Shown here: piece after piece, positions 21,862 through 38,043 of the stretch
How the letters are laid out: every line of letters begins with the position of its first letter
How positions within the stretch are numbered: position 1 is the stretch's first letter
From: a virus
Lineage: Duplodnaviria > Heunggongvirae > Uroviricota > Caudoviricetes
Strand: one strand, 5' to 3'
Virus record (IMG/VR): IMGVR_UViG_3300032155_000026
Location: 12,916 to 76,915 of that record
Length of the DNA stretch: 64,000 bases
Program-made: the position numbers and the translations under genes
The notes under the pieces: model-generated
The model's input: the letters and a program-made list of their open reading frames with translations, nothing else
What the model was told of the DNA's origin: nothing
Databases searched by the model: none

Positions 21862-24006
21862 ATGCGTTCAGCCGCAAAAAAGTGGGGGGAGTCCGCGTGC
21901 TCCCCCGCCCTTTCTCCAAGCCGAAAGAGCGGCGAAGAGGCAGAGAGAACGATCCCTCTGAACGCTGCCATAGAGAAGGCGTTGGAGCTTTTGAGCAGGG
22001 CAGGGTTTTCTGAAAAATCAAAGGTTGCCCGCGCTTATGTCGAGCTCCTGAAACTGACCGTGGGCAAGTCCGGGGCCCCCTCAGATAAAGTACCGATATC
22101 GTTGATAAAGCATAGTTTCCAGAATTTGGCAGGCATGTTGATCTCTGGAGACTGGCGGATGCTCTTCCAGCCGAGAGGTCGGAAGGACATGAAGATCGTC
22201 GACGTGGAGGAGTTCGCACGCTCGGCGCAGTACCTGGGGCTGGGTGGTGCTGTCTGGCCAGGAGTCATGGACGACCTGTGGCAGATCTTCCACGGAGAGC
22301 ATTCGGACGAGATCATCGAAGTGGTCCTGGGCGGCGGTATCGGTTGCGGCAAGACGCACTCGGCCCAGATAGGGCTGGCGTACCAGACGTACCTGCTGTC
22401 GACGTACCACTGTCCGCAGTTGGAGTTCGGGCTGGCTCCCGGAACGCCGATCGATCTGGTGATCCAGTCCGTCGACCTGAGCAAGGCACGCAAGGTGGGC
22501 TTCGAGGCGTTGCGCACGTGGATGACGAAGAGCCCGTACTTCGCGAAGAACTTCCCCCCGGTGGAGGGGCTGGTGAACGTCCTCCGGATGCCCAACTCGA
22601 TCACGATCTTGCCGGTGTCGTCCTCGGATACGGCGGCGCTCGGCATGAACGTGTGGGGTGGGTTGGTCGACGAAATCTCGTTCATGCAGCGTACGGCCAA
22701 TTCGTCCCGCGCCAGGTTCACCGGGGAAGCGGAGTACGACCAGGCCGTCAAGATCTACACAACGATCATCCGGCGCATGCAGTCCCGTTTCAACAAGTGC
22801 GGCCGGGTGCCTGGGAAGCTCTTCCTGGCGGCGTCGGCGAACTACCCTGGTGACTTCGTAGACCGCAAGGTGAAAGAGGCGGCGTCGGACATTGCAGCCG
22901 GCCGGCGGTACACGACGTTCGTGACCATCCGAAGGGAGTGGGAGGTCAAGCCCCGCGGCGCGTTTTCGGAAGAGATGTTCCTGGTGGAGGTCGGTGACGA
23001 GGTCCGGCAGTCGCGCATCATCCAGAGCATGGAGGACGCGGTCGACCCAGACGCGGTGATTCCGGTCCCTGTGGATTTCCAGGACTCTTTCGAGAAGGAT
23101 CTGGAAGCGGCCATCCGGGACATCTGCGGCGTGGCCGTGGCTGGCACCAACACGTTCATCAAGCAGCGTGAGAAGTTGGCTGCCTGCTTCCAGAAGCACG
23201 TCGAGTATTACGACGGGCGTCAGCTCTTCGCCCCCGATTCCGTGGAGCTGTCCAAATACGATGGCCGCGTCGGCGACCTGCTGAACGAAGAGTTCCTGGA
23301 AGAGCTCCGGCAGTCCGGGCATCAATTCGTGGCGCACGTGGACTTGGCCCTGCGCCGAGACTCCTGCGGCATCGCCGTGTCACACGTGCCGGGATACCAG
23401 TTCGTCGGGAAGACGACCAACTGGGACCAGACGGAGAAGCGGTACGTGGAGGTTGCGGCCGGGGAGCAGCCGGTGTTCGTTGTAGACGGCGTGCTCGAAG
23501 TCGTCCCGCCCCTGGTCGACGAGATCGACCTGACCTTGGTGGGCGACCTGCTGACCGCGCTCGCGACCAGGCTCAATCTGGTGGGTGTGACCGCGGACTC
23601 GTTCGAGAGCACGGCCCTGCTGCAGCGGATGCGCAAGACCGTGAATGCTTTCGGGAAGAAGATCAAGGCGGCGGTGGTGTCCGTAGACGCCGAGCTGACC
23701 GGATACGCGACCGTGAGACAGGCCATTCGGGATGACCGGCTGTTGATGCCCAGGATCGAGAAGCTGCACCGCGAGTTGCGCGAACTGCAGATCGACCCGA
23801 AGAAGGCGAAGGTGGACCACCCGCCGACCGGCTCGAAGGACCTGGCCGACGCGGTGGCCGGGACGCTCCACGTGCTCGGAAACCTCCATCGCTCGCGTGG
23901 GAAGCTGCAAGCGGCGACGACTGCCACTGACGAGACCACCGGGCGTGTCTCGGTGATCCGACAGGAGTCGTCTAGCAGGCGTCGCTCCAGAAGGCGTCTG
24001 CTTTAG
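21862..24006 (+). CDS. terminase large subunit (ATPase plus nuclease)
   Basis: Walker A GGGIGCGKT, Walker B GLVDEISFM. C-terminal RNaseH-like Asp motifs (DLALRRDSCG, KDLADAVAGTL). About 130-aa N-terminal extension. Confidence 0.65.
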   Translation: MRSAAKKWGESACSPALSPSRKSGEEAERTIPLNAAIEKALELLSRAGFSEKSKVARAYVELLKLTVGKSGAPSDKVPISLIKHSFQNLAGMLISGDWRMLFQPRGRKDMKIVDVEEFARSAQYLGLGGAVWPGVMDDLWQIFHGEHSDEIIEVVLGGGIGCGKTHSAQIGLAYQTYLLSTYHCPQLEFGLAPGTPIDLVIQSVDLSKARKVGFEALRTWMTKSPYFAKNFPPVEGLVNVLRMPNSITILPVSSSDTAALGMNVWGGLVDEISFMQRTANSSRARFTGEAEYDQAVKIYTTIIRRMQSRFNKCGRVPGKLFLAASANYPGDFVDRKVKEAASDIAAGRRYTTFVTIRREWEVKPRGAFSEEMFLVEVGDEVRQSRIIQSMEDAVDPDAVIPVPVDFQDSFEKDLEAAIRDICGVAVAGTNTFIKQREKLAACFQKHVEYYDGRQLFAPDSVELSKYDGRVGDLLNEEFLEELRQSGHQFVAHVDLALRRDSCGIAVSHVPGYQFVGKTTNWDQTEKRYVEVAAGEQPVFVVDGVLEVVPPLVDEIDLTLVGDLLTALATRLNLVGVTADSFESTALLQRMRKTVNAFGKKIKAAVVSVDAELTGYATVRQAIRDDRLLMPRIEKLHRELRELQIDPKKAKVDHPPTGSKDLADAVAGTLHVLGNLHRSRGKLQAATTATDETTGRVSVIRQESSSRRRSRRRLL

Positions 24007-24154
24007 CGCTGACGACGTTTCTGTCGCCCGCCCCTCCCCTTCCCCAAGGGGCGGGTGAAAACGCAGCTGGGGCCATTCTGGAGCGCGTGGCGCCTATTTC
24101 CTTCTGGCTGACTGCCGAGGCTCCCACGCGTGGGTATTTGAGCGCCTACGCGTT

Positions 24155-24182
24155 TTGAGCCACCCTCCTTATCATCTATAAG
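24155..24182 (+). promoter_or_regulatory. sigma70-like promoter (TTGAGC-N16-TATAAG), family-c repeat
   Basis: Hexamers match. Shares GAGTTTTGAG/CCTTATCAT context with elements near 11.45k, 32.2k, 42.26k and 45.18k. Confidence 0.35.
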
Positions 24183-24293
24183 AGACCAGACGTTAGAGCG
24201 AAACGCCTTCGCAACCAAGGACTTATCGCCATTTTTGTGTGGTCTGGCTGACTGCGTGCGTTCAAAAAATCTCGATTTTGTGAGCTTTTATTG

Positions 24294-24321
24294 TTGACGC
24301 ACACGCGCCTTTTGGTACTCT
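24294..24321 (+). promoter_or_regulatory. promoter module A (TTGACG-N16-TACTCT), 6 nt before the conserved ATGGAAATAGTTCAACAAA start
   Basis: One of four homologous copies (26805, 32321, 47190). GATTTTG motif upstream. Confidence 0.55.
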
Positions 24322-24327
24322 CAACTC

Positions 24328-24531
24328 ATGGAAATAGTTCAACAAAATGGGGAGAACCAGATGGACCTTACCACCGCTTCCCGGATCATAGGCCTGCCCC
24401 ACCCGTTCCTGGTGGATGACGCCCGGAGAGCCCGGCTGAACCTGTACGCACAGAACATGCTGGACCGCCCGGCCAGGCGCACCCTCCGCGAGTTGGTGGC
24501 GCTGGACCTCTACATTTCCGCAACTTCCTAG
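24328..24531 (+). CDS. small hypothetical protein (MEIVQQ...), candidate leaderless start
   Basis: ATG at the predicted transcription start. Alternative SD-dependent start at 24361. Confidence 0.35.
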   Translation: MEIVQQNGENQMDLTTASRIIGLPHPFLVDDARRARLNLYAQNMLDRPARRTLRELVALDLYISATS

Positions 24532-24545
24532 AGGAGGCTGAGAGA

Positions 24546-24815
24546 GTGGCCGACAACCTGACAGAGATCGCTGACCAGCTGGAAGAGCTCTCCGCGGACG
24601 CGTACAACATCCTGAACCAGATGAGGGATTTGTTGAGGGGCGTTCCGGCTGACATCCGGCGCAGGGCCAAGGCGTACTGGCTGGCGCACATCGACTGCGC
24701 CCTGGAGAACAGGGACGGGTGCCTGGGGAAGTCGATGACCACCCTGGCTGACACGGTGGCCGAGCTCCGGGAGCTGCTGAAGGAGAGGGTGAATGATCAC
24801 CGCACGCGAGGCTGA
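24546..24815 (+). CDS. hypothetical protein
   Basis: GTG after GAGGAGG. Helical acidic protein. Confidence 0.45.
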   Translation: MADNLTEIADQLEELSADAYNILNQMRDLLRGVPADIRRRAKAYWLAHIDCALENRDGCLGKSMTTLADTVAELRELLKERVNDHRTRG

Positions 24816-25029
24816 CAGCTTTCTGCAGAGTGCCGCCTATGACATGGCGGATGGCGACGAGCGAGAGGCCGACCGCCTGTACAACGACATCGAGGTTATG
24901 GGCGACCTCCTCGCAACCAGAGTAGGGAGCGGCCGTGTCGCCGACGAGACCCTGCTGGTCCTGATGGAGAGTCGGGTCAGCCCAGTGGCCGAGGCGGCCG
25001 CGTACATTCTTGAACGCAGAACCGGGTAG
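24793..25029 (+). CDS. hypothetical protein
   Basis: ATG after GAGGG. Overlaps the upstream gene. Confidence 0.4.
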   Translation: MITAREADSFLQSAAYDMADGDEREADRLYNDIEVMGDLLATRVGSGRVADETLLVLMESRVSPVAEAAAYILERRTG

Positions 25030-25031
25030 TC

Positions 25032-25049
25032 GGTGCAATCGATTGCACC
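25032..25049. repeat. palindrome copy 7 (perfect)
   Basis: Intergenic between 25029 and 25065. Confidence 0.9.
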
Positions 25050-25064
25050 AGATAGGAGGAAGGC

Positions 25065-25268
25065 GTGAGTCAGGTGAGAAGGGTCCGCAGGTATGAGTAT
25101 GACTGCCAGGGGTTCGAGACCGGGCTGGCCGGCCTGCGGGAAGAGCGCCACGGGTGGTTGATGCGGACCGACGAGGTCGAGGAGTTGCTCCTGGCCGTAG
25201 TTAACGGAGAGATGTCCGCGGCAGACGCCCTGCTGGCGGTGCGGGACACGAGGAGGGCCGTGCGATGA
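25065..25268 (+). CDS. hypothetical protein
   Basis: GTG after GGAGGAAGG. Confidence 0.4.
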   Translation: MSQVRRVRRYEYDCQGFETGLAGLREERHGWLMRTDEVEELLLAVVNGEMSAADALLAVRDTRRAVR

Positions 25269-25561
25269 AGATCGATCTGAAGGACGTCAGCCTGCCGTGG
25301 CAGGTGAAGGGTTCGAACTACGCCTTTGTCCGCCTGGGTCCGCTTGGTAAACTGGTGGTGAAGGAATGCATCCGTATCCGTGGTGAGGAGCCCGTGTTCC
25401 AGATGTGGGTGTTCGGCGAGGAGCTGAAGATCAAGGCGAGCAGCGGGTTCAAGGTCGCGTCTCTGGGAGACGGGATGCGCGTGGCCGAGGCGTCTGCGCG
25501 TGCGGGGATCAAGGAGGCCTACCGGATCGTGATGGAAGAGTTCCCCGAACCGCTGGACTGA
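25265..25561 (+). CDS. hypothetical protein
   Basis: ATGA overlap with the upstream gene. Confidence 0.45.
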   Translation: MKIDLKDVSLPWQVKGSNYAFVRLGPLGKLVVKECIRIRGEEPVFQMWVFGEELKIKASSGFKVASLGDGMRVAEASARAGIKEAYRIVMEEFPEPLD

Positions 25562-25564
25562 CCG

Positions 25565-25951
25565 ATGGTTGAAAAATGGATTCGCCCTGGGCCGACCCTG
25601 GCTGGTTGTGAGACCGTCAGGGTGACCGACGACGTGCCGCCCGCTTGGCTCATTTGCAAGCGGGCGCTTCTGCCGAGCCGTGAGATGCTGCTGAGCTGGG
25701 GCGCGCTCATGATCTGCACCGAGGGGTACAGGTGTCCGAAGAGTGGTTACTGGGTCCCCGAGGGCAGCTTCAGGATGTTCGACGGCCGCGAGATCGGCCT
25801 GGTGACAGAGATGACCGTCGAACAGAGCGGGTTTCCGATCGTGCTCCTCTCCACCACGGTCCGGCGGGTCTTTCTGCGCGTGTCGTGGATCTGCGTGGTG
25901 GTCGACTGGACCGGCTACGGTTTCTGCTTCCCGAGGAGGTTGCGGCTGTGA
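25565..25951 (+). CDS. LPP-motif paralog family member P1
   Basis: ALLPSREMLLSWGALM motif. Ends PRRLRL*, encoded by AGGAGGTTGCGGCTGTGA. Confidence 0.5.
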   Translation: MVEKWIRPGPTLAGCETVRVTDDVPPAWLICKRALLPSREMLLSWGALMICTEGYRCPKSGYWVPEGSFRMFDGREIGLVTEMTVEQSGFPIVLLSTTVRRVFLRVSWICVVVDWTGYGFCFPRRLRL

Positions 25952-26166
25952 CGTACGTGCTCAACGGGAACCGCGTCCGGTTTTTGCAGGAGTCCGAATA
26001 CAGTGATTCACTGGTAGGGCAGGTGGTTCACCTGCCGCCCATGGAGTTGCTGCGGGATACAGACCGGCTGCGTGTTGGGCGGGCTGGTCGTGTCTGGCCT
26101 GTCCGGTTACCGGGATTCTTGTTGTTGAGCGCATGTTCGTTTTCTTTGACGGTCGCGGAACGGTAG
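25948..26166 (+). CDS. small hypothetical protein
   Basis: GTG overlapping the P1 stop (GTGA); junction RBS AGGAGG. Confidence 0.35.
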   Translation: MTYVLNGNRVRFLQESEYSDSLVGQVVHLPPMELLRDTDRLRVGRAGRVWPVRLPGFLLLSACSFSLTVAER

Positions 26167-26366
26167 TGACAGCCACCCGTAGTGCTGGCGACGAGGTGCG
26201 AGCCGTGCGCCTTGAAGGCTGCGATCCGTGGTGGTTCTCCTGCAGGTGGTTGATGTTGAGAGCCTTGGCGATTCGAGTACAACCGCTAGACGTTGTGCCG
26301 GAGGGCCCGGTGGTGGCACCGGCGATTGAAATCGTGACTGAACCGGTCAGGAGGTTGCGTCTGTGA
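26133..26366 (+). CDS. small hypothetical protein ending VRRLRL
   Basis: Track ORF. 3' end AGGAGGTTGCGTCTGTGA identical in form to the 25934..25951 junction. Confidence 0.35.
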   Translation: MFVFFDGRGTVVTATRSAGDEVRAVRLEGCDPWWFSCRWLMLRALAIRVQPLDVVPEGPVVAPAIEIVTEPVRRLRL

Positions 26367-26776
26367 TTCGGACGGCCGCGTGCAAGCCCTCGGTGCAGTT
26401 TGTCACCAGAGAGTGGAAGGGCGTCGTCTACCACATGCTGGGGCCCAGAGGCACGGATGACAGGCGTTATATCAAGCTGCGCTGCTGGGTGCTGCCCCCG
26501 GTCGAGGCTCTGCTGTCCTGGGGGCTGGTGGTTAAGGCTGATGCGCCGCAGGCCGCCCTGACAGACTACGCTGTCGCTGAATCGCAGAGATGCTTGATCG
26601 TGCGAAACATGCTGCCGCTGTTTGACGGGAAGACACCGCGTGCGCTGCGAACAGTCGCGTCCTGGTCGTGCACGCTGCGCGGGAACGGGCTGGAGTCGCT
26701 GGTGGTCGAGTTGGCCTGGCTAGCCCGCGCGGCGCTCAGGCAACCGGTGCAGGCCTGCCGACGCTTACGCGTCTAA
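26363..26776 (+). CDS. LPP-motif paralog family member P2
   Basis: WVLPPVEALLSWGLVV motif. Ends CRRLRV*. Confidence 0.5.
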   Translation: MIRTAACKPSVQFVTREWKGVVYHMLGPRGTDDRRYIKLRCWVLPPVEALLSWGLVVKADAPQAALTDYAVAESQRCLIVRNMLPLFDGKTPRALRTVASWSCTLRGNGLESLVVELAWLARAALRQPVQACRRLRV

Positions 26777-26804
26777 TTATTTCTGATTTTAGAGACTTTT
26801 CGTG

Positions 26805-26832
26805 TTGTCGCCTGCGCGCCTTCTGCTATTAT
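26805..26832 (+). promoter_or_regulatory. promoter module B (TTGTCG-N16-TATTAT), 6 nt before conserved ATGGAAATAGTTCAACAAA
   Basis: Homologous to module A, including the upstream GATTTTAGAG. Confidence 0.5.
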
Positions 26833-26838
26833 CAAGGC

Positions 26839-26994
26839 ATGGAAATAGTTCAACAAAAGGAGCAGGCAATGACCGCCAACGTATGGGATTCCGTGGAAGA
26901 GTTCTTCGACGATCGTGGGTTCGACTTCGACTCCATTGAGGACGCCCGCGACCTGTTCGGGGATGCGGCTGTGCGTGCCTACCTGGAGGCCTAG
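26839..26994 (+). CDS. small acidic protein (MEIVQQ... or SD-dependent MTANVWD from 26869)
   Basis: Conserved ATG 26839 is in frame with the AAAGGAGC-ATG 26869 start. Confidence 0.4.
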   Translation: MEIVQQKEQAMTANVWDSVEEFFDDRGFDFDSIEDARDLFGDAAVRAYLEA

Positions 26995-27276
26995 ATGAGC
27001 GTCCGGGAAGGGAGAGTCCGGGTGGCGGTCGTTTCCGCCAGCAAGCTCGGCTCGGCGTGCTGGAGCGCGCTCCGGGCAGTCGGTGGGTGCCACCAATGCG
27101 ACAGAGTCAGGGGCTGCGCCCTTCCGGAGGCCGTCCGTGGCCGGCTGCTGTTGGCAGAGCGTGCCTTCGACAGGCATCTGGAAGAGAGCGAACGCAAGCG
27201 TGTTCGACTGGCCGCTGAGTTGGCGTCTGCCAAAGAGGCCGTGGGAGGGCTGAGCGATGACCGTGGACAGATTTGA
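26995..27276 (+). CDS. hypothetical protein
   Basis: ATGA overlap with the upstream stop. Confidence 0.4.
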   Translation: MSVREGRVRVAVVSASKLGSACWSALRAVGGCHQCDRVRGCALPEAVRGRLLLAERAFDRHLEESERKRVRLAAELASAKEAVGGLSDDRGQI

Positions 27277-27586
27277 CGAGTTCGAGCTGTGGGCGAAGTC
27301 GGCGGTTCCGACCCGCTGGCTGACCCTGGGAGCGCCGGACGCCAAGGAGATCGTGGCCGCGGTCGAGAAACGACTGGCCGAGAAAAGCGATGAGATAAGG
27401 GCCCTGAAGCTGGCGCATGACCGACAGTCGGCGGCAGACCGAAAGCGCCTCGAAAGGATGGACGCGCGCCTTTGCGAGATGATCGACTGCGCGAGCTGGT
27501 CGAGTCGTTTGAGACGCTTGAGCACCTCGAATCCCAGACCGGGCAGGCGCGCGTTCGAGTGTCGTTTGACCTCGACTGCTACATGA
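27257..27586 (+). CDS. hypothetical protein, possibly frameshifted
   Basis: N-terminal 75 aa are protein-like. The frame-1 continuation 27421..27645 (LRELVESFETLEHL...) reads better than this frame's tail. Confidence 0.3.
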   Translation: MTVDRFDEFELWAKSAVPTRWLTLGAPDAKEIVAAVEKRLAEKSDEIRALKLAHDRQSAADRKRLERMDARLCEMIDCASWSSRLRRLSTSNPRPGRRAFECRLTSTAT

Positions 27587-27634
27587 GGCTCGGCGACGTG
27601 CTCGTGCGGATGTCGTCCGATGGAGGTGCTGAAG

Positions 27635-27811
27635 ATGATCGTTGACATTCACGATGTGTGTCCGTCCATGCGTTCCCTGGCCGAGACTGCCAGACGCGCG
27701 TACCTGGCTGGGTGCTCACGGATCGCGGCGGCGCTCCTGAAAGCTGGACACGCTCGCTACGGTGCCGTGTTCGCGGCGGCGTACTGGAACGCCAAGCGGC
27801 AGCTGGGGTAG
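27635..27811 (+). CDS. small hypothetical protein
   Basis: ATG 27635 after GGAGGTG (track start 27620). Confidence 0.35.
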   Translation: MIVDIHDVCPSMRSLAETARRAYLAGCSRIAAALLKAGHARYGAVFAAAYWNAKRQLG

Positions 27812-27813
27812 CC

Positions 27814-27831
27814 CGTGCAATCGATTGCACC
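27814..27831. repeat. palindrome copy 8 (perfect 16 core)
   Basis: Directly after the TAG stop at 27811. Confidence 0.9.
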
Positions 27832-28258
27832 GGAAGGTTGGCCGTCTAGGTGGGTTGAGTGTGAAGACGCCAGATGGCTCATGCCTGACTGCGACCCGCG
27901 CGACGTTGGGCAGCTTACGCGACTGGCAGACTTCCTCGAAACGCGCCGAGCGCTTTGGCTCCCGCCACTCGACTTGTTGCTCAAGACCAGAGGGCTGGTC
28001 CGGCGCGGCGAAACGGCATACTTTGCGCGCGCGCTTGGTGACGACTCCCTGGTCGACTCCATGCTTCCGTGGCTGTCTAGCAGGGAGGGCGTGTACATTG
28101 AGGAACGCATCCCGCGCCCCAAGGGGCCCGCTTTCGTGCTGCACGGGGACCAGGGTGAGTTTTTCTGGTATCCGGAGTGGTTCGCGCTCGCCCGCGAAGA
28201 CCTGCGGATGCGGGCTGACGTGGACAGGTTGCGCGCGGTCAGAAAGTTGAGACTCTGA
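27815..28258 (+). CDS. LPP-motif paralog family member P3 (start uncertain)
   Basis: ALWLPPLDLLLKTRG motif; ends VRKLRL*. The track start lies inside the palindrome, so the real start may be 27869 or 27881. Confidence 0.45.
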   Translation: MQSIAPEGWPSRWVECEDARWLMPDCDPRDVGQLTRLADFLETRRALWLPPLDLLLKTRGLVRRGETAYFARALGDDSLVDSMLPWLSSREGVYIEERIPRPKGPAFVLHGDQGEFFWYPEWFALAREDLRMRADVDRLRAVRKLRL

Positions 28259-28276
28259 CCCGCTACTGGAGGACGA

Positions 28277-28495
28277 ATGATTCGACAGACGTACGTGGTC
28301 ACGTTCGGTTTTGGGCAAATCCTGTCCGGATGCTATACCAAGGTGGTGGCATCCTCCAGGGACAAGGCCCAGGAGAGGGTCATTGACGAGTATGGCAGAC
28401 TGTGGTCGATGCTGTATGATTCCGAAGAGGCTGCTGGATGCGCGGAATACAACCTGAAGTTCGTGCCGTTCGGCACGCCCAATGGGAGGAGATGA
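28277..28495 (+). CDS. hypothetical protein
   Basis: GGAGGACGA-ATG; compact globular-looking 72 aa. Confidence 0.5.
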   Translation: MIRQTYVVTFGFGQILSGCYTKVVASSRDKAQERVIDEYGRLWSMLYDSEEAAGCAEYNLKFVPFGTPNGRR

Positions 28496-28496
28496 C

Positions 28497-29096
28497 ATGC
28501 GAGAGGGGCAGATGCTGCATGTGGACGCGGAGATACGCACGCAGGGCCCGTGCTTTATGGAGGTCGCAGGCCGGATCACCAAGGTTGAGACCGTGATGGA
28601 TCTGGTCGACGTCGTGCTGGCCTCGCGTGTCGGCGACGCGACGTGGAGGAAGCCGTTTGAAATGCGCGCTGAGGTTATGCGCGACCTTCTCGGGGTCCTG
28701 GAGGGGGGAGCGGCCGGGCGCCCGGAGACGTGGTTCCTCTCTGCCAGGGACTGCTACGAGGCGCAGCAGGAGCGCATGTGGCACCTGGCCAGGGCGTTCA
28801 GCAACCGCGGCTTTTCCGTGACCTGGCACGACGGGGAGGTTTTCTGGGCCAGTGTCCCGAAGTGGAAGGGCTGGATGTGGTTCCCGTCGTGCGGTCCGAA
28901 GGAGGCGACGGCTACCGTGTATGACATCGAGCAGGCGGCGCAGGCCGGAAGGAAGGGCATCCGGCAGCTGCTCCTGAACCTCAAGCGGGCCGTCGGCGAG
29001 GGGCCCGAGTTCGAGAAGGGGCTGCGCGCTACCGCGCGGGTGGTGGAATCCGTCCGCCGTGCGCTCGCGGACGCGGCACAGCCCATCGGGGGATAG
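28497..29096 (+). CDS. hypothetical protein
   Basis: ATG 28497 after GGGAGGAG, immediately after the upstream stop. Confidence 0.5.
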   Translation: MREGQMLHVDAEIRTQGPCFMEVAGRITKVETVMDLVDVVLASRVGDATWRKPFEMRAEVMRDLLGVLEGGAAGRPETWFLSARDCYEAQQERMWHLARAFSNRGFSVTWHDGEVFWASVPKWKGWMWFPSCGPKEATATVYDIEQAAQAGRKGIRQLLLNLKRAVGEGPEFEKGLRATARVVESVRRALADAAQPIGG

Positions 29097-29098
29097 TC

Positions 29099-29548
29099 AT
29101 GCGTGTGCCGCGCGAACCGACGCCGACCCCGTGCCTGCGTGCGGTGCGCTGGGGTGAGGCAACCTACATGATGTTGGCGGGCCCGAACGTCATGCAAGTC
29201 ATCGTCCGCAAATGGCCGGTCCTCCTCGCGCCTGTCGAACTGCTCGTACACCTTGAGGTGGTGAAGCCGTACGGAGCGCTTGGATGGCGTTCGCGCCTCC
29301 AGACGGGAGGGCCGGGCTGCCTGCTCACGACATTCATGATCGCCGAGATGGCCTGCATCGTGCAGCGTCTCGAGTTGTTTGACGGTGAGGTAGGACATCT
29401 GCACACGCGGGGCGTGCTCGTGTACGGTCGCGCGCCGTCCGGCAGACTAAGCCTCTCTTGCGATTCCGACTGGTTCTATCTGGCCCCAGGGTGCTACTCT
29501 AACGAGCCGTTGCGCGTGACGGAGTCGACCAGGCGGCTGCGCGTGTAA
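29099..29548 (+). CDS. LPP-motif paralog family member P4
   Basis: WPVLLAPVELLVHLEVV motif; ends TRRLRV*. Confidence 0.5.
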   Translation: MRVPREPTPTPCLRAVRWGEATYMMLAGPNVMQVIVRKWPVLLAPVELLVHLEVVKPYGALGWRSRLQTGGPGCLLTTFMIAEMACIVQRLELFDGEVGHLHTRGVLVYGRAPSGRLSLSCDSDWFYLAPGCYSNEPLRVTESTRRLRV

Positions 29549-29563
29549 CTGGAGGTGGCGTTC

Positions 29564-30013
29564 ATGGAATGGGTTGCACTGCACAGGACGATGGTTGAGT
29601 TTGGGCTCCCCCTGGCGCTCTGCATAGCGGGATGGTGGTTCTTGTGGCCCCACCGAAGGAATCGCCTGGAGAGGCCAGAACCCGAGACGCTTGAGCAATG
29701 CAGGGCGCAGTTGGAGCGTATCGCGGCGGCGCCTGGCGATACTGAAGAAGACTGGGTGCTCTTCGTGGCGAAGGGCGGGACGCTGCATGCCCACGGAAAG
29801 GCTAACGCGCGGGTGCGTGCGATATTTCTGTGCGAGCTGCTGAGTGTCTGCGACCCGGCGGTCTGCGCGCTTGTGTTCTCCGAGCACGCGGGGCGGCAGA
29901 TCCAGGCCCGGCAATTCGAGGAGTTGATGACCGGGGCACCTGCCGAGGCGTCCCCGGATAAACCGACGGCTGCCCGGAAGGCGTGTCCGCAAGACAGACT
30001 GCTGCGGCTGTAA
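29564..30013 (+). CDS. LPP-motif paralog family member P5 (weaker)
   Basis: EFGLPLALCIAGWW; ends DRLLRL*. ATG 29564 after GGAGGTGG (track GTG 29555). Confidence 0.45.
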   Translation: MEWVALHRTMVEFGLPLALCIAGWWFLWPHRRNRLERPEPETLEQCRAQLERIAAAPGDTEEDWVLFVAKGGTLHAHGKANARVRAIFLCELLSVCDPAVCALVFSEHAGRQIQARQFEELMTGAPAEASPDKPTAARKACPQDRLLRL

Positions 30014-30061
30014 TTTGCTGGAACGGCGCCTGATGTTATTGTCAGACATGGAGGACGTGTA

Positions 30062-30490
30062 ATGCCGTTTGATCTTCCACCGTTCGATGGGCTGCTAACG
30101 GGACGCTGGAGTAGCGGCCCAACGCGGTTCCAGTGGATGCCTCGCAGCCTCGACGCGGTTGACTACGAACCCTTTGTGATGGACGCAGTGCGCCCTCGCG
30201 CTAAATGGGATCGTGCAGCCGTTGCCAGAGAGCTGCACGACATCAAAGAGCGCCTGCAGATGCTCGCCGAGCACGCCAGTCTGACGTCCCAGGATGGAGT
30301 GTCGTGGCAGTTCATCTACGGAGACGAGAACGACGCACAGATAATCGGCTTTGGCCATACCACGGCACGGGTGGCGCTCCTGCGCAGAGCGTGTCGTGTG
30401 CATCGTGGATTCCGCAGACTCTTACGCCGTGTCCTGCGCTTGGATAGCGCCGAGCGCGTCGAGGGAGGCTCGCGTGTTCTGCGACTCTGA
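30062..30490 (+). CDS. LPP-motif paralog family member P6
   Basis: MPFDLPPFDGLLTGRW N-terminus; ends SRVLRL*. Confidence 0.5.
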   Translation: MPFDLPPFDGLLTGRWSSGPTRFQWMPRSLDAVDYEPFVMDAVRPRAKWDRAAVARELHDIKERLQMLAEHASLTSQDGVSWQFIYGDENDAQIIGFGHTTARVALLRRACRVHRGFRRLLRRVLRLDSAERVEGGSRVLRL

Positions 30491-30941
30491 TTTTCCTGAG
30501 TCGTTCAACCACGACGACGTGCGAAATGCGTACAAGGCGTGGCCCACGACGTGGGTGCGTGCCAGGTCAGGCCCAGCCGTGCTGATGCTCCGCAGACCTG
30601 TTCTGGTGACCGCGCGTGCTCTGCCAGTCGTACGGTTCTTGCCCCCGAAGGCCTGGCTTCTGGAAACCGGGCGGCTGCGCAGCGATATGATTACCTTGTG
30701 GAACTTCATGTATGCCAGGCGGGACGCGACTCGGTGCTGTGTCATGACCCTCGTCGACGTTGTGAGCGCTGATCGCGTGTATTGGAATTCTATCAACGAC
30801 GACCAGCGGCCTTTTTTGTTACGACCATCGTTGGGTCGGGCTGGCGTGGCGGGCGTATGTTCGGACGGACTCCCTGGCGCGGGTTCGGCGACTGCGTCTG
30901 TAGTGCAATCGATTGCACCAGACCGTGCCAGGAAGCTATGA
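30474..30941 (+). CDS. LPP-motif paralog family member P7
   Basis: GTG 30474 after GGGAGG. VVRFLPPKAWLLETGRL motif. C-terminus runs into palindrome #9. Confidence 0.45.
   Translation: MFCDSDFPESFNHDDVRNAYKAWPTTWVRARSGPAVLMLRRPVLVTARALPVVRFLPPKAWLLETGRLRSDMITLWNFMYARRDATRCCVMTLVDVVSADRVYWNSINDDQRPFLLRPSLGRAGVAGVCSDGLPGAGSATASVVQSIAPDRARKL
30902..30919. repeat. palindrome copy 9
   Basis: At the 3' end of P7, before gene 30966. Confidence 0.9.
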
Positions 30942-30965
30942 TGAAGAAAAAAGAGGTTTGACCAG

Positions 30966-31892
30966 ATGGCGAAACGGTACATCGACGAGCGACTTTCCTA
31001 CGCCCGCTGCAACACGCTTTGGAAAGAGCGAGAAGCCCACGTGGTCAAGGTGAACAGCAAGGGAGACTATGGCATCCGTCTGATGGATCGCACCTACCTG
31101 ATCAAATCCAGACGGGTGGACTGGAAGAAGGCGTACCGCCCGGTCTGGCAGGTCGTGTGGACCACCGGGATTCCGATCATCACGTTCTACCCGTGCGGCA
31201 CGATCGAGCTGCCCATGAACGCTCCAATCCGTGCGCGGCGGATGTGGTCGTTTCGGCAGCGCCGCTACGCGCTGAAAGGATACGACGCGAGCATCTGGGG
31301 TAGCGGCTACCACCAGCGCTTTCTGGCGTATTGGCGTTCGTGCCGGATTTCCCACAGGGTGCAGACGCACTATCTGTATCCGTGGATCGCGGAGAATTTC
31401 ACGAACGAGACGGACCGGTACGTGGTCAGGTTTCGGTTCGACGGGAGCACGCCCATCCCGGTCGGGCGCTTTTCCGAGAGCGCGCGCCTGGAGTATAGGC
31501 ACCGGCTCGTCATACGCTGCGACGCGGCAGGGCGCCTGCAGCATGTCGAATACGGCGACTCGGTCGCACAACCCTGTGTGGTGGTCGTTAAGGAGTCCGG
31601 AGAGCGTTTCCTCCCCAAGCTGGTCAAGCGAAAGACGACCTGGACCATGCATAGCATACTCGAGCAGGACGACTTTCTTGAGGAAGCCGTGGAGGAGTAC
31701 GTGGACGCGCGGGAATCCGCAGCGATGGCCGTACTCCTGAAGGCGTTCGTCCAGGGCCGGAGCACTGCGCGCGGGTGGGAGTTCCGGAATCTCGCCGAAG
31801 ATCTGTGGCGCAAGGCCAGGAAGCAGGCTGAGCATGAGTATCCGGAGAAGTTCGTGTCGCGTGGGAAGGAGAGGAGATTGCGCATATGCTGA
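30966..31892 (+). CDS. hypothetical protein (308 aa)
   Basis: Track ORF; W/Y/R-rich globular composition. Confidence 0.55.
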   Translation: MAKRYIDERLSYARCNTLWKEREAHVVKVNSKGDYGIRLMDRTYLIKSRRVDWKKAYRPVWQVVWTTGIPIITFYPCGTIELPMNAPIRARRMWSFRQRRYALKGYDASIWGSGYHQRFLAYWRSCRISHRVQTHYLYPWIAENFTNETDRYVVRFRFDGSTPIPVGRFSESARLEYRHRLVIRCDAAGRLQHVEYGDSVAQPCVVVVKESGERFLPKLVKRKTTWTMHSILEQDDFLEEAVEEYVDARESAAMAVLLKAFVQGRSTARGWEFRNLAEDLWRKARKQAEHEYPEKFVSRGKERRLRIC

Positions 31893-32170
31893 CGAGCAGT
31901 GACATTCAGCGCCTGAACGACCGCCTTGCCGCGGTCACCGATCGGGTGTGCCTGCGCCTCCCTTTGGAGGAGACCGAGGCGGTGCTGCGTGCGATGGGCG
32001 CCACCCCGGCGTGCCCCCTCGCAGAAGTCGTGGCCGGGGCCGGGGAGGCCGGGCAGGTGTGGTGTGCCGTTCTCGAGGATGGGGCGGATGCAGGACTCCA
32101 ACTCGAGCTGCGCTGGAAAACGCTGGCAGGGTCGGCCACCTACGCGATGGCGCGTGTGAAGAGAAATTAG
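31886..32170 (+). CDS. hypothetical protein
   Basis: ATG overlapping the upstream stop. Confidence 0.45.
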   Translation: MLTSSDIQRLNDRLAAVTDRVCLRLPLEETEAVLRAMGATPACPLAEVVAGAGEAGQVWCAVLEDGADAGLQLELRWKTLAGSATYAMARVKRN

Positions 32171-32320
32171 GCGCACACATTTGGCGTCTCCAGAGTTTTC
32201 GAGATCCAGGCCCTATAATCCTCTGTGAGACAGGCGAATTGCTTTTCCTGGGCGGGCCGCTCCACTGGGATTTCGAGCGCCCGCGCGTTCAAAAAATATT
32301 GATTTTGCGAGATTCTACTG

Positions 32321-32348
32321 TTGACGTACCGGTGCCTCCTGGTACACT
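32321..32348 (+). promoter_or_regulatory. promoter module C (TTGACG-N16-TACACT), 6 nt before conserved ATGGGAATCATTCAACAAA
   Basis: Near-identical to module A over about 90 nt (ttcaaaaaatNTNgattttgNgag...ttgacg). Confidence 0.55.
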
Positions 32349-32354
32349 GAAGTT

Positions 32355-32663
32355 ATGGGAATCATTCAACAAATGGAGGAAATCATGGAACCGCTGAAGT
32401 GCCCCCACTGCCAGAAGCCCATCCCGGAAGAGGCCCTGCGTGAGGAACCCGCCAACGTGGTCGAGTTCCGTGGCGCGCTGCTGCCGATCTCCACCACGAG
32501 CGCCCTGTGGTGCTGCGGAGGAGACATACACATGCGCATCGAGATGGTGGACGGGACGCCCACCGTCACCGAGGTGTACCCGGTGCCGGATGAGCTGTCG
32601 CTGCCCGCGTCCGAAGAGGCGCTGATGACCAAGCTCGGACTGACCTACGAGGATTTCCAGTGA
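32355..32663 (+). CDS. zinc-ribbon protein (CPHC...CC); alternative SD start 32385
   Basis: Conserved ATG in frame. GGAGGAAATC-ATG at 32385. Confidence 0.5.
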   Translation: MGIIQQMEEIMEPLKCPHCQKPIPEEALREEPANVVEFRGALLPISTTSALWCCGGDIHMRIEMVDGTPTVTEVYPVPDELSLPASEEALMTKLGLTYEDFQ

Positions 32664-32679
32664 TTGCCACCGGTGCAAT

Positions 32680-32701
32680 CGATTGCACCGGGCGTACTCC
32701 T
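32680..32701. repeat. palindrome copy 10, 22-bp perfect CCGGTGCAATCGATTGCACCGG
   Basis: After the stop at 32663. Confidence 0.9.
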
Positions 32702-32737
32702 GAAGAGGCGCCCGGTGCACAACCCGCAGGAGAAGAG

Positions 32738-33079
32738 ATGATGCTGACCGCAACGAAGTTGCCGGTGTACAGAGTAGGCGGTGGCCTGCGCATCCGCCAG
32801 GCCGTGCGCATGGCGATCTGCGAGCGCCTGTCAGACCTGACCAGTGGATTGCACCCCAGCGTCCCGCTGGACGAGATGTTCGAGGTCTGCCGGGCCGTCG
32901 GCCTGGAGGCCGTGGACGAAGCGCAGGAGCCCTGGAGCGGCCTCCTCTGCGGAAGAGAGGGCAGGGCGAGCATCGCCCTCCTGTCTCTGGATTTCGGGGA
33001 GGTGGTGGAGGAGCACCTGCAGGTGTCCTGGTACCGGCTGGAAAGCGGGCGGTTCGAAGTGACCGCCTACGTGCTCTAG
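32738..33079 (+). CDS. hypothetical protein
   Basis: GGAGAAGAG-ATG 32738 in track frame. Confidence 0.5.
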   Translation: MMLTATKLPVYRVGGGLRIRQAVRMAICERLSDLTSGLHPSVPLDEMFEVCRAVGLEAVDEAQEPWSGLLCGREGRASIALLSLDFGEVVEEHLQVSWYRLESGRFEVTAYVL

Positions 33080-33092
33080 GAGGAAGCCGTGG

Positions 33093-33221
33093 GTGAGCGA
33101 CACGGTGTCCTACGCGTTGCTGCAAGACATTGTGGAGCTTTCAGCAGAGCTAGATATGGAGTGCCCGCTTCAGGAATATCTGGACGACTACGACGAGATT
33201 ATTGACCACGAGGGAGGATGA
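33093..33221 (+). CDS. small acidic peptide (42 aa)
   Basis: GTG after GGAGGAAGCC. Clean acidic ORF ...LQEYLDDYDEIIDHEGG. Confidence 0.3.
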   Translation: MSDTVSYALLQDIVELSAELDMECPLQEYLDDYDEIIDHEGG

Positions 33222-33224
33222 ACA

Positions 33225-33473
33225 ATGGCGAGCAAGCGACATCTGCGACGCAAGAGTTGTCAGGGGAAGGCCAGACACGCCAGCGAGGAGAACGCGTGGA
33301 AGGCCGTGGATGGGACACAGGATGTGACCGGCACGATCGGCCTGACGCCGTACAAATGCGCGTTTTGTGGCTGGTGGCACATAGGGCATAATAGAGGAAA
33401 GGTGATCGCTGACCGCTGCGGTCACTCGCAGAAAGCGGCAGCCAGCGGCCAACTGCACGGCGGTCGGGGATAG
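33225..33473 (+). CDS. zinc-finger-like small protein
   Basis: CQGK...CAFCGWWH...C..H pattern. Confidence 0.45.
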   Translation: MASKRHLRRKSCQGKARHASEENAWKAVDGTQDVTGTIGLTPYKCAFCGWWHIGHNRGKVIADRCGHSQKAAASGQLHGGRG

Positions 33474-33483
33474 GAGGACGATC

Positions 33484-33813
33484 ATGGCTTCTTTGCAAAA
33501 GACGATGTCTGGCGTTCCGCAGGTAGTGATGGCCGAAGGGTCCGTCATTCCGGTCCCACTGGTCGAGGCCGCGGTGTCGATGCTACTCGCGATTCCCGCT
33601 GATATTCTGGAAAGGGTTGCGGCGGCGATGGACAGAGCCAGCGTGGACGCGGAGCTGCTGGAGTATCCGCCTGCGCAGTATGGCGCGCGGGTGCTTCGCG
33701 ACTTCATGTCCGGGCGTCCGGTGGACGCGGAGCAATTCGTCGTGGTCTGCAACGCGGTTGCGCACGTGGTGGCGCCTACTTTCGGCAAAGAGTGCGGGGC
33801 CTGCCATGGCTGA
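33484..33813 (+). CDS. hypothetical protein
   Basis: GGAGGACGATC-ATG. Confidence 0.5.
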   Translation: MASLQKTMSGVPQVVMAEGSVIPVPLVEAAVSMLLAIPADILERVAAAMDRASVDAELLEYPPAQYGARVLRDFMSGRPVDAEQFVVVCNAVAHVVAPTFGKECGACHG

Positions 33814-34081
33814 GCGCGGAACACTCGCCCCCGGCGAACCCCACCCGGCGGCACGGCTGGCGCTCCTGTGGCTTCGGGCGTTCCCGCTCTCTGACCTCAT
33901 GGCTTGGCAGGAGGTTCTGGCCTCGACCGCCATAGAGGGCAACCGGATGGCCGAAGTCTGTGCGGAGACGCTGAGGCGCTTTATCGCTGGAGAGCCGGTG
34001 AGCGATCGATACCTGCTCGGGCTGGTTTGCGTGTTACGTGACCTGAACAGCCTGTGCGGTGCAACCGATTGCACGGAGTAA
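33810..34081 (+). CDS. hypothetical protein
   Basis: ATGGCTGA start/stop overlap. 3' end runs through palindrome #11. Confidence 0.45.
34058..34075. repeat. palindrome copy 11, variant ...CAACCGATTG...
   Basis: At the 3' end of gene 33810..34081. Confidence 0.8.
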
Positions 34082-34090
34082 GGTGGGTGT

Positions 34091-34510
34091 ATGGCGACCT
34101 GGTGCAGCTACCGAGCGACGTTTACGTTCCCGGATGTCAGTTCCGTTGCGCACGCGCTGGAACTCTGGACGCATTTCGAGTCCGGCCGGTATCAGGACTA
34201 TCATTTTGCGCAGCCCGACCAGGACCTGCCGTTCATGCTCCACTGCGAGAGTCGGGGCTACGGAGACATGGAGTCGTTGTTCTTCGACCTCGGAAGGCTG
34301 GCCCTGTTCGGGACCCTGGTGACCGCGGACGATGCGGAACACGGGGACTGCTCGTTCTTCGTCGGTCCGAATGACCGGGCGATACTGGCCGCGAAGAGGC
34401 TGGATGTCTGCCAACGGATTGAGGATCTGATGATGTCGTATGGGCAGCCAAGACCGAATGAGACTGACGCGTTCCTCAAACGGCTGAGGCTCCTCGCGGA
34501 GGACGTATGA
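34091..34510 (+). CDS. hypothetical protein
   Basis: Track ORF; globular composition. Confidence 0.5.
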   Translation: MATWCSYRATFTFPDVSSVAHALELWTHFESGRYQDYHFAQPDQDLPFMLHCESRGYGDMESLFFDLGRLALFGTLVTADDAEHGDCSFFVGPNDRAILAAKRLDVCQRIEDLMMSYGQPRPNETDAFLKRLRLLAEDV

Positions 34511-34782
34511 GGTGGTTGGTCATCCCGTTGGTGCTCGCCGCCCAGCTGGCCGTGGCTGAGGTGTCCTGGCGTCTCGGCAAGGCCGCAGGTGAGCGCGAGG
34601 CGGTCGTCGCGGCGCAGACCCGCGCTGAAGTGACGTGCGAGCAATATTTCGACGCTGTGTTGGATCTTCTCGCGATAGCCGACGAGCACACGACACGGCT
34701 GTCCGCTGTCGAAGAGGATCTGTCCGCCACGGTGCTGCGCATGGATGGCGCGCACCATGAGCTAGTCAGGAGGCCCAAGTGA
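34507..34782 (+). CDS. hypothetical protein with N-terminal hydrophobic helix
   Basis: ATGA overlap. WLVIPLVLAAQLAVA membrane/signal-like helix. Confidence 0.45.
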   Translation: MRWLVIPLVLAAQLAVAEVSWRLGKAAGEREAVVAAQTRAEVTCEQYFDAVLDLLAIADEHTTRLSAVEEDLSATVLRMDGAHHELVRRPK

Positions 34783-34985
34783 CGACGTGTTTCGTGATCT
34801 ACGGTTACGACGATGAGGACAACGCGCCCGTGCTGCTATGCACGGACAACAGGCGGGAGGCGGCGCAGTGCGCGCGTGACTACGGGGCCGTCGTGTACGA
34901 GTACGACAAGGTCGGTGGCCGGGTCGGCGGCAGCCTGTGCAATGGCCGGAGGGTCTGGCCGCGGGAGGGAAGTCGTGAAGAATGA
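34779..34985 (+). CDS. hypothetical protein
   Basis: GTGA overlap with the upstream gene. Confidence 0.4.
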   Translation: MTTCFVIYGYDDEDNAPVLLCTDNRREAAQCARDYGAVVYEYDKVGGRVGGSLCNGRRVWPREGSREE

Positions 34986-35124
34986 GCGTGTTCGCATCGC
35001 GCGCCTTTGGGCGAAGACGGTGGCGGCGGTGGCCGTGTGCGCGGCTGGCGCGTATTGCATGCACGTGACTGGCGGGGAGACGGGCATCGGCTGGGCGATT
35101 CTCGGCCTGATGATCATCTGGTAG
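34975..35124 (+). CDS. small membrane peptide
   Basis: GTG after GGGAGGGAAG. One TM segment (TVAAVAVCAAGAYC...WAILGLMIIW). Confidence 0.3.
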   Translation: MKNERVRIARLWAKTVAAVAVCAAGAYCMHVTGGETGIGWAILGLMIIW

Positions 35125-35145
35125 AATGAAGGCAGGAGGAAAATC

Positions 35146-36126
35146 ATGCCCTGCGTGACATACATGGACGATTTCGAGTATATCGAGTTGCGCTATGCGA
35201 TGGACCCTGAAATGCGGAAGCTGTGCGACGAAGTCCGGGACCTCACCGGCATGGTGTTTGCCGTCGGCAAGACGACGCAGGCGGTCGGGAGGTCAGGCGT
35301 GTGGCCGTTCCGGAAGACGGACACGCTGGAGCGGTACACCGTGTACCTGCGGCTGCCTGACACCCCGGAAGCGCAGTGTATCAACCTGCTGACCGGGCTG
35401 GGAGGTGGGTACAGTCGGGCTGAGGCCGGCGCGTTCCTGATCGGCGTACGGCTCCTGGCGAGTTCAGGAAGGCACCGGGGGCGTAGGCGCGAAAGGGGCG
35501 TGCCCCTGCGCGACGCGGAGGACGGCGCCGGTGGCATGGCAAGCGTCGAGCTCACCGGGCGGCAGATCGCAGAGCTTCACGCCCTGGTGGGCGACGACCC
35601 CACGGCGCCCGTCACTGTGCACAGGGCCCCCATGGGGCACTCCGGCCCTGGCCTGTACGCATGGTTCTCGGAGAACACGGAAGAGGGGGCTGTCTTTTTG
35701 GGCGGTGCCTCCGACGTTCGCCCCTGCTCTTTCACGGAAGAGTGGTGTATCTCCCGTGCTCGATCCGAGGGGGCCAGCGACCCGACCACTGGACAACCGG
35801 AGGCAGCCGGTTCCCGCCCCTGCACCTGCGGAGAGAGGCCGAGCATGATGCAATGCCAGGACTGTCTGCCGGGCAGTGAGGCGCCGGAAGGCACGTACTG
35901 TTCGGACGGCGAGCACCCCGGATGTGTGTGCACTGACGGTGCGTGGCCTGCGTGCAAGAAAGACGTTCGTGCCGCCGACAACTTGAGGGCCGTGATCACC
36001 CAGATGCGTGATGTCGTCCGCGAGGCCGATGAAGAGCTGCACGCCACCGCGTACGCCGTCCACCGCAAGCTGCAGGCGCTCTTGGCGCAGACGGCCGAGC
36101 TGAGCATGGGAGGCGACAATGAGTGA
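35146..36126 (+). CDS. hypothetical protein (326 aa), Cys-rich C-terminal half
   Basis: GGAGGAAAATC-ATG; multiple Cys pairs (CTCG...CQDC...CVCTDGAWPAC). Confidence 0.55.
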   Translation: MPCVTYMDDFEYIELRYAMDPEMRKLCDEVRDLTGMVFAVGKTTQAVGRSGVWPFRKTDTLERYTVYLRLPDTPEAQCINLLTGLGGGYSRAEAGAFLIGVRLLASSGRHRGRRRERGVPLRDAEDGAGGMASVELTGRQIAELHALVGDDPTAPVTVHRAPMGHSGPGLYAWFSENTEEGAVFLGGASDVRPCSFTEEWCISRARSEGASDPTTGQPEAAGSRPCTCGERPSMMQCQDCLPGSEAPEGTYCSDGEHPGCVCTDGAWPACKKDVRAADNLRAVITQMRDVVREADEELHATAYAVHRKLQALLAQTAELSMGGDNE

Positions 36127-36921: not shown

Positions 36922-36934
36922 AAGGAGGGGGGGC

Positions 36935-37120: not shown

Positions 37121-37122
37121 CA

Positions 37123-38032: not shown

Positions 38033-38043
38033 TCGGTGCAATC
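38024..38043. repeat. palindrome copy 12, 20-bp perfect
   Basis: Between the TAA at 38022 and ATG 38065. Confidence 0.9.

Follow-up and report, generated by a model that had tools for sequence, protein, structure and literature searches.

What holds together a row of small phage genes that have no homologues, and what might their common feature do? The question is raised by a tandem block at 25565-30941 of a 64,000-nucleotide stretch of a Caudoviricetes genome (IMG/VR record IMGVR_UViG_3300032155_000026, positions 12,916 to 76,915), called the window below and numbered from its first letter. A preliminary description of this block, made from the letters alone, had proposed at least seven diversifying paralogues with an LPP motif and a reused gene-junction cassette. 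Small homologue-free genes fill phage accessory islands and their logic is seldom readable from sequence; in this array the protein tail gives a handle. The strongest constraint on eight dissimilar proteins is a free C-terminus of five residues, and the members of a widespread but uncharacterised family of phage AAA+ ATPases end in a similar peptide. The array is tentatively read as a set of divergent bodies with a shared tail that would act as a docking peptide, its receptor perhaps being that of the ATPase tail.

A C-terminal peptide shared by eight array proteins

Stop-to-stop open reading frames (ORFs) of at least 50 codons were scanned on both strands of the window. Seven of them, all on the plus strand, end in [RKL][RKLV]LR[LV] (ends 25951, 26366, 26776, 28258, 29548, 30013 and 30490), and the same ending is found in none of the other ~743 window ORFs on either strand. 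An eighth tail, RRLRL with its stop at 30901-30903, lies in frame +1 behind the gene starting at 30474. The shared C-terminal peptide of the preliminary description therefore stands, with seven ORF ends and an eighth reached by a +1 shift. In the six-frame translation of the window (110,713 residues, 1,140 ORFs) the pentapeptide [RK]-x-L-R-[LV] occurs 17 times; eight occurrences are at ORF ends, where ~0.09 would be expected, and all eight are in the array. The tail rate in 53 unrelated metagenomic loci was 1 in 3,281 ORFs. The array proteins are as follows.

25565-25951, plus strand: member A, 128 amino acids; LLPSREMLLSWG motif, FDG and W blocks, tail RRLRL
25948-26366, plus strand: member B/C; LPPMELL motif in frame 1; FFDG, W block and tail RRLRL in frame 0
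26363-26776, plus strand: member D, 137 amino acids; WVLPPVEALLSWG, LFDG, AW, tail RRLRV
27815-28258, plus strand: member E, 147 amino acids; LWLPPLDLLL, tail RKLRL
29099-29548, plus strand: member F, 149 amino acids; LLAPVELL, LFDG, DW, tail RRLRV
29564-30013, plus strand: G, 149 amino acids; tail RLLRL only, without LPP motif or body similarity
30062-30490, plus strand: H, 142 amino acids; LPP motif at residues 5-12 (DLPPFDGLL), tail present twice
30474-30903, plus strand: member I; LPP motif FLPPKAWLLETG in frame 0; frame +1 holds the W block GLAWRAYV and the tail RRLRL

The tail usually stands 0-7 residues past a Pro or Gly; member I has none nearby. Its coding differs widely between genes. 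Four tails read AGG AGG TTG CGG CTG, AGG AGG TTG CGT CTG, CGA CGC TTA CGC GTC and AGA AAG TTG AGA CTC, and the other four AGG CGG CTG CGC GTG, AGA CTG CTG CGG CTG, CGT GTT CTG CGA CTC and CGG CGA CTG CGT CTG. Five different Arg codons are thus used at each of positions -5 and -2, and Leu is TTG, TTA or CTG. The stop after the tail is TGA, TAA or TAG, and what comes next is unrelated between genes, either a promoter or separate ribosome-binding sites (RBSs). Since the amino acids are kept while synonymous codons and flanks vary, the constraint acts on the peptide and not on the DNA, and keeping the residues through such codon turnover requires purifying selection.

In H the tail is duplicated at 30425-30490: an internal RRVLRL is followed, nine residues on, by SRVLRL and the stop. 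The second copy overlaps the RBS and GTG start of I, as if an older stop had been read through. Elsewhere in the window, the gene at 34091-34510 carries KRLRL ten residues before its end; it was rejected as a family member because the other family features are absent.

The junction cassette

The preliminary description had ascribed the common C-terminus to a conserved nucleotide cassette. As a general explanation this fails: only two copies of the cassette AGGAGGTTGCGNCTGTGA are found in the window, even allowing three mismatches, against eight tails, and the other tails use different codons.

25934-25951, plus strand: junction cassette copy 1, AGGAGGTTGCGGCTGTGA; RBS, 8-nt spacer and GTG start overlapping the TGA stop
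26349-26366, plus strand: junction cassette copy 2, AGGAGGTTGCGTCTGTGA; 17 of 18 positions identical to copy 1

In member A both AGG AGG Arg codons double as the RBS of the next gene, and the GTG start of B/C overlaps the TGA of A. This combination of AGG AGG as the next RBS with a GTGA start/stop overlap occurs only at the A to B/C and B/C to D junctions. The claims of GTG starts overlapping TGA stops and of hard-wired translational coupling therefore hold for these two junctions and for none of the others. The GTG start of I lies 17 nt inside H, preceded by a GGGAGG RBS, and the remaining members have separate RBSs. The AGGAGG...GTGA junction is peculiar to the A, B/C and D sub-cluster. RNA structure at the two cassette junctions was considered and rejected (z-scores +0.45 and +0.08).

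Body similarity and frameshifted members

The LPP motif, written as LPP.[ED].?LL, has four six-frame matches in the window, and the relaxed form L[PA][PS].[ED].?LL has six (25670, 26032, 26492, 27959, 29225 and 30074). All of them fall in array genes and in the coding frame. By the relaxed pattern the carriers are A, B/C, D, E, F and H; LPP...LL adds I (30639), and G has none. The motif had been listed for seven genes, and it was found in those at 25565, 26363, 27815, 29099, 30062 and 30474, but not in the one at 29564.

Similarity of the bodies was assessed with leave-one-out profiles from which the last six residues had been removed, against 1000 shuffles; the B/C junction was chosen to maximise its score. 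The real score was reached by no shuffles for B/C and D, and by 4 for F, 11 for E, 30 for A and 49 for I. Member D is the most central of the family (17.5 bits without the tail). G and H gave no body signal; the body of H is missed by the family profile, and only the two motifs are in common with the family. Pairwise BLASTP between members is weak (best E 0.002). GC content at third codon positions (GC3) backs the proposed frames, at 0.74-0.84 in A, D, E, F and G, and is weaker in B/C, H and I; for member A it is 0.76-0.90 in the coding frame. On visual inspection the N-terminus of G seems hydrophobic (no hydropathy peak was computed for it). The start of E is uncertain: GTG 27815 lies inside a palindrome, and the source gene call of 125 amino acids is consistent with ATG 27881.

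Two members escaped the preliminary description in whole or in part, namely B/C in its two halves and the tail of the 30474 gene. A profile built from A, D, E and F detects the 26133 ORF and the frame +1 tail ORF behind 30474 (the latter at E 0.02). A -1 shift at ~26052-26097 joins the ORF at 25948, the one with the LPP motif, to the tail-bearing ORF at 26133; the resulting protein of 139 amino acids scores 25.5 bits (E 8e-7) against the same profile. By profile match the two ORFs are one member split by a -1 frameshift. A GGGCGGG stretch was noticed there as a candidate shift site. Member I requires a +1 shift at ~30766-30840, with a T6 run at ~30812-30817 as a candidate site. Its shifted stop, TAG 30901-30903, lies at the edge of a palindrome, as in other genes, and the unshifted frame 0 extends to 30941. 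The two shifts have opposite signs and may reflect mutation and pseudogenization, recoding or assembly error. B/C and I give the impression of copies damaged by frameshifts in the course of gene birth and death.

Eight tails against 0.09 expected, an LPP motif confined to the array and the GC3-supported frames together indicate that the family is real and no composition artefact. The preliminary description had named GC-rich composition bias as the check that could undo the LPP similarity, and the six-frame motif counts and shuffles reject it. On these profile comparisons A, B/C, D, E and F are read as diverged paralogues, and I probably is one too. Beyond the 18-mer cassette the paralogues have no DNA similarity, so the duplications must be old. 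The earlier view of a diversifying paralogue family is supported, the family being lineage-specific and strongly diverged.

Searches for homologues

No match better than E 0.06 was found for any member in Pfam-A, PHROGs, NCBIfam or PADLOC, and a profile search of PDB sequences gave no matches at E up to 10. A tblastn search with G and H against 50,697 phage records returned nothing. A word-indexed profile search of 5.8 billion clustered proteins returned only the four intact query members, all on one 217,215-bp JGI contig; exhaustive HMMER searching of 1.84 billion representatives with a profile likewise returned these four and nothing more. The profile built from the members, which had been suggested as a check, therefore finds nothing apart from the contig's own genes. 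The family is, as far as these collections reach, restricted to this phage lineage. In the literature searched no phage family of this kind is described, and no work on the AAA+ ATPase discussed below was found. Nothing ties the array genes to a defence system. The preliminary description was right that function cannot be assigned from sequence: none of the domain, PDB-sequence or billion-protein searches gives a homology.

Likeness to the tail of a phage AAA+ ATPase

Two further genes of the window have to be considered together with the array.

8030-9667, plus strand: Cdc48/PAN/FtsH-like AAA+ ATPase, C-terminal region ...GGKG-RAIRV-ADGAGVH
30966-31892, plus strand: 308-amino-acid protein that immediately follows the array; its end, ...KERRLRIC, is the tail motif with one residue added

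The ATPase domain is most similar to the Cdc48/p97/VAT unfoldases. Pfam finds only AAA and AAA_lid_3 in it, and no MIT domain was identified. Next downstream of the ATPase gene is a conserved gene at 9682-10683. The family has at least 470 relatives at E below 1e-40 and is present in known phages (Rhizobium L338C, Pseudomonas SM1, PaMx31 and Mycobacterium phage Shida), none with an assigned function. C-terminal tails are known as docking peptides in the Cdc48/p97/VAT clade. When relatives of the phage were scanned for the array tail, AAA+ ATPases were the only real genes bearing it (...GLRNLRV-stop). Among the 35 closest ATPase sequences (at least 53% identical, the window's own included) R.[LI]R[VILM] lies within the last 15 residues in 28, against 2 of 35 with the motif anywhere in the ~500 residues upstream. 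Close ATPases have a variable Gly/Pro/Ser-rich linker followed by a conserved [LI]RNLR[VI], and distant members a looser [VLI]-R-x-[LI]-[RK].

All eight array tails match R-x-[LI]-R-[VILM], and most of them, like the ATPase tails, stand a few residues past a Pro or Gly. An unsupervised ATPase-tail matrix was made from 34 orthologues, the window ATPase excluded (consensus IRNLRV), and scored on the last eight residues of ORFs. Nine ORFs (F, A, the 308-amino-acid protein, D, H, I, C, E and G) are within the top 12 of 454 plus-strand ORFs, the 308-amino-acid protein with the third-best score. The body of this protein has no similarity to the array family, and it has no homologues.

The tail does not appear to derive from a duplicated 3' end of the ATPase gene, a possibility that was rejected since the family profile does not match the ATPase ORF. 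Known C-terminal patterns were also searched for in the members. None matches the MuA-type (basic run plus A/V/L/I pair), ssrA-type (LAA) or SspB XB (LR[VL][VL]K) patterns, the HbYX motif (hydrophobic-Tyr-any residue at the extreme C-terminus), the ESCRT-III MIM1 consensus (D/E)xxLxxRLxxL(K/R), its relaxed form included, or the beta-clamp-binding motif QL[SD]LF or QLxLx[LF]. A 20S-like peptidase was not seen in the window.

The accessory island and its surroundings

The window has a GC content of 63% and its convincing genes are all on the plus strand. By gene content this is a large siphovirus-like phage, with ribonucleotide reductase, the AAA+ ATPase, sugar-modifying enzymes, a large terminase (21862-24006) and thymidylate synthase. 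The virion genes encode a prohead protease, a structural protein that falls in the PHROG head and packaging category, a tape measure and a J-like tail protein. The stretch 15525-20395, a few genes upstream of the terminase, is a run of genes for glycosyltransferase, aminotransferase and nucleotide-sugar epimerase, which may serve DNA or virion glycan modification.

Among GenBank phages the best terminase matches are only ~33-35% identical (RcZahn and Vibrio SIO-2-like phages). Megablast of 12 kb against phage records gave no match, and a search of IMG/VR with the terminase retrieved no relative. Metagenomic relatives with a 45-53% identical terminase have the same gene order upstream: a RuvC-like gene, the AAA+ ATPase, its conserved neighbour, a ParB_N gene and then the terminase. 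In the relatives reached through the terminase there is no array, no correctly placed LPP motif and no analogous set of shared tails among the post-terminase genes. In four of them the genes directly after the terminase match the window at 41.7-43.1 kb, which makes 24.0-41.7 kb of the window a lineage-specific insertion of ~17.7 kb. This island (24006-41700) holds small genes without homologues as well as a tRNA-Pro(TGG) at 39487-39563.

In two relatives (L054, 16576-22100; L058, 13922-22121) the phage genes are flanked by an integrase and genes of anaerobes (Crp, prismane, aconitase). Both appear to be integrated prophages of anaerobes; one contig bears the name of a Desulfovibrio metagenome-assembled genome, a hint of what hosts the clade may have. 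In several relatives (proteins P0019, P0055, P0060, P0102, P0103, P0107 and P0112) the terminase or ATPase genes are interrupted by intein or homing-endonuclease domains (PF14890, PF14528, PF13392); the window copies have none.

A promoter cassette of ~100 nt is present in four copies in the island and its right flank (24255-24353, 26766-26864, 32282-32380 and 47151-47250). In each copy an A/T-rich stretch lies upstream of TTGACG and an extended -10 (TGgTAcaCT), and the conserved leader ATGGAAATAGTTCAACAAA leads on to an RBS and a real start codon. The first two copies, and the palindromes that bracket the block from E to I, are placed as follows.

24255-24353, plus strand: promoter cassette 1, -10 TGgTACTCT; upstream of the operon holding A, B/C and D
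26766-26864, plus strand: promoter cassette 2; overlaps the last codons of D and is the nearest promoter-like site upstream of 26839-31892 (E to I)
27816-27829, no strand assigned: palindrome TGCAATCGATTGCA at the start of E
30904-30917, no strand assigned: palindrome TGCAATCGATTGCA immediately after the shifted stop of I

The cassettes are sigma-70-like, that is of host type, which would fit early transcription by the host polymerase. Together with the lineage-specific island they form a context that fits early accessory genes.

The 14-bp palindrome TGCAATCGATTGCA, often in the form GGTGCAATCGATTGCACC, has 21 sites in the window within two mismatches against 0.13 expected (1802, 4691, 9748, 25034, 27816, 30904, 32674, 38037, 53301 and 58603, for example). 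It usually lies 1-11 nt past a stop codon, the next start coming 15-18 nt later, and an RBS follows it. Relative L056 (45% GC, 51% terminase identity) has eight copies in 22 kb. In L054 an asymmetric variant, TGCAAGCGATTGCA, is found five times on one strand, with one reverse-complement copy and two other near-matches. To judge from this placement, the palindrome looks like a clade-wide element associated with gene starts, perhaps a protein-binding site or an RNA hairpin. Scanning for an 18-bp palindrome gave 2 IMG/VR loci and 51 metagenome loci, none from a close relative; tblastn on these loci found weak matches only, to two window genes far from the array.

A proposed docking peptide and its alternatives

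The array proteins, 130-150 amino acids long, go back to old tandem duplications, and their genes lie in the accessory island between the terminase and the post-terminase genes. Their fast-diverging bodies keep a few blocks (a W near the N-terminus, LPPxE/DxLL, (L/F)FDG and a W near the C-terminus). According to the tentatively favoured docking-peptide reading, the bodies would form the variable, target-specific part, and the tail, R-x-L-R-[L/V]-COOH, would be a short linear docking motif. That G and H keep it on unrecognisable bodies is what is expected of a modular docking peptide. More weakly, the receptor may be whatever reads the [LI]RNLR[VI] motif of the ATPase: the ATPase ring, its N-domain or a third partner. 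Early in infection the array proteins could then be exchangeable with one another as adaptors, clients or competitors of the ATPase.

Several points weigh against this proposal. The array tails are mutually related, so their likeness to the ATPase tail counts for roughly a single independent comparison (p ~0.01-0.02); this likeness was, besides, spotted post hoc. In the window's own ATPase the motif is weaker and internal (RAIRV, 7 residues from the end). In three relatives with the ATPase gene in the locus no other real gene bears the tail, which leaves the link between ATPase and array without a second example. The body-homology statistics of A, E and I are marginal, two of eight members are frameshifted, so that the array could be decaying, and the whole case depends on one metagenomic contig. 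AlphaFold2 models of D and E from a six-member alignment are unusable (mean pLDDT 43.5 and 47.4); the one feature that recurs in them, a short helix directly behind LPP, is of low confidence.

Among the alternatives, it is conceivable but rather unlikely that the array encodes early host-takeover effectors sharing one host target or localisation signal, a host hub unrelated to the ATPase, with the tail likeness a coincidence. The accessory island with its host-type promoters, the pairing of a conserved extreme C-terminus with variable bodies and the statistically modest ATPase link would all agree with this. However, no host protein can be put forward as the target, the known C-terminal docking patterns that were tested do not fit, and it is left unexplained why a matrix made from ATPase tails only singles out the array proteins. 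Somewhat less probable is that the tail is a C-terminal degradation tag, basic and hydrophobic like MuA RRKKAI, which limits the lifetime of early proteins and has no adaptor role. C-terminal peptides are established signals for bacterial AAA+ proteases, the tail stands at a free C-terminus usually just past a Pro or Gly, and the phage encodes its own unfoldase-type ATPase; yet patterns like the MuA, ssrA and SspB tails go unmatched, an ATPase bearing a degron on itself would be odd, and a degron rarely needs five near-invariant residues. Equally doubtful is a more specific form of the ATPase link, in which the array and 308-amino-acid proteins would be adaptors or clients recruited by copying the R-x-L-R-V peptide of the ATPase, their bodies selecting host targets.

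That the array is a decaying duplication remnant without current function, in which tail and motifs are the slowest-decaying remains, would agree with the frameshifts in two of the eight members, with the weak GC3 of B/C, H and I and with the lack of homologues elsewhere. This is improbable given six intact ORFs of 128-149 amino acids in a 63% GC genome with good GC3 (0.74-0.84), RBSs and tight packing, and given that tail residues were kept while codons turned over. The view that the common C-terminus merely results from reuse of a DNA junction with hard-wired coupling draws on the two 17/18 identical junctions in which RBS, start and stop are combined. As a general explanation it is very unlikely, being refuted by the copy count and by the codon variation of the other six tails, which also have TAA, TGA or TAG stops and separate RBSs or a promoter; it stands only for A to B/C and B/C to D. 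Chance, finally, would mean that the ORFs are not real genes and that Arg and Leu are simply frequent in GC-rich translations. The weak pairwise BLASTP scores agree with it, but the terminal tail counts, the motif patterns that match the array alone, the shuffle controls and the GC3 frame support led to its rejection, and it is hardly credible.

If the tails and the ATPase do share one receptor, this would be the first function assigned to that ATPase family and would suggest a modular phage route to many targets through one machine. The adaptor or client form, if true, would amount to a virus-encoded, peptide-addressed system of protein remodelling or degradation. If the ATPase likeness is coincidental, the array is an ordinary lineage-specific expansion of paralogues.

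Comparison with known systems

A close comparison for a docking tail is with the HbYX motif of PAN, Rpt and Cdc48 and of non-ATPase 20S activators, and with the GQYL of mycobacterial Mpa and Bpa, tails that are shared across the partners of one ring. As in the array, a Cdc48/PAN-type ATPase and unrelated small proteins have in common a peptide of very few residues, which stands behind a flexible linker at the extreme C-terminus, and in those systems sharing means competition for one set of docking pockets. The array differs in that its motif is R-x-L-R-[LV] and not hydrophobic-Tyr-X, in that the window ATPase has its motif 7 residues from the end, and in the lack of a visible 20S-like peptidase in the window.

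The SspB XB sequence, ...LRVVK, tethers this adaptor to ClpX's zinc-binding domain. The body of SspB is the variable cargo-binding part, as is proposed for the array bodies. The ClpX-directed peptides of MuA and SspB likewise have basic and aliphatic residues at a free C-terminus, and there they act as a degron or tie an adaptor to an AAA+ machine. MuA RRKKAI is a ClpX degron, and together with the SspB tail it is an established C-terminal precedent (PMC8138137). Their patterns are nevertheless unmatched in the array, and nothing links the array proteins to ClpX. ESCRT-III, read through the MIM1 motif by the MIT domain of Vps4, is similar in being a set of small paralogues with a Leu/Arg-rich C-terminal motif recognised by a classic-clade AAA+ ATPase. 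It is unlike the array in that the MIM1 consensus is absent from all members, no ESCRT-III-like helical hairpin is predicted and no MIT domain was identified by Pfam in the window ATPase.

Lineage-specific paralogous families occur in the accessory or early regions of large phages. The array resembles them in its tandem same-strand small genes without homologues, its hypervariable island, its host-type promoters and its frameshifted copies. It departs from them in that its most conserved element is a five-residue C-terminus, kept even by G and H, which resembles a motif of another phage protein.

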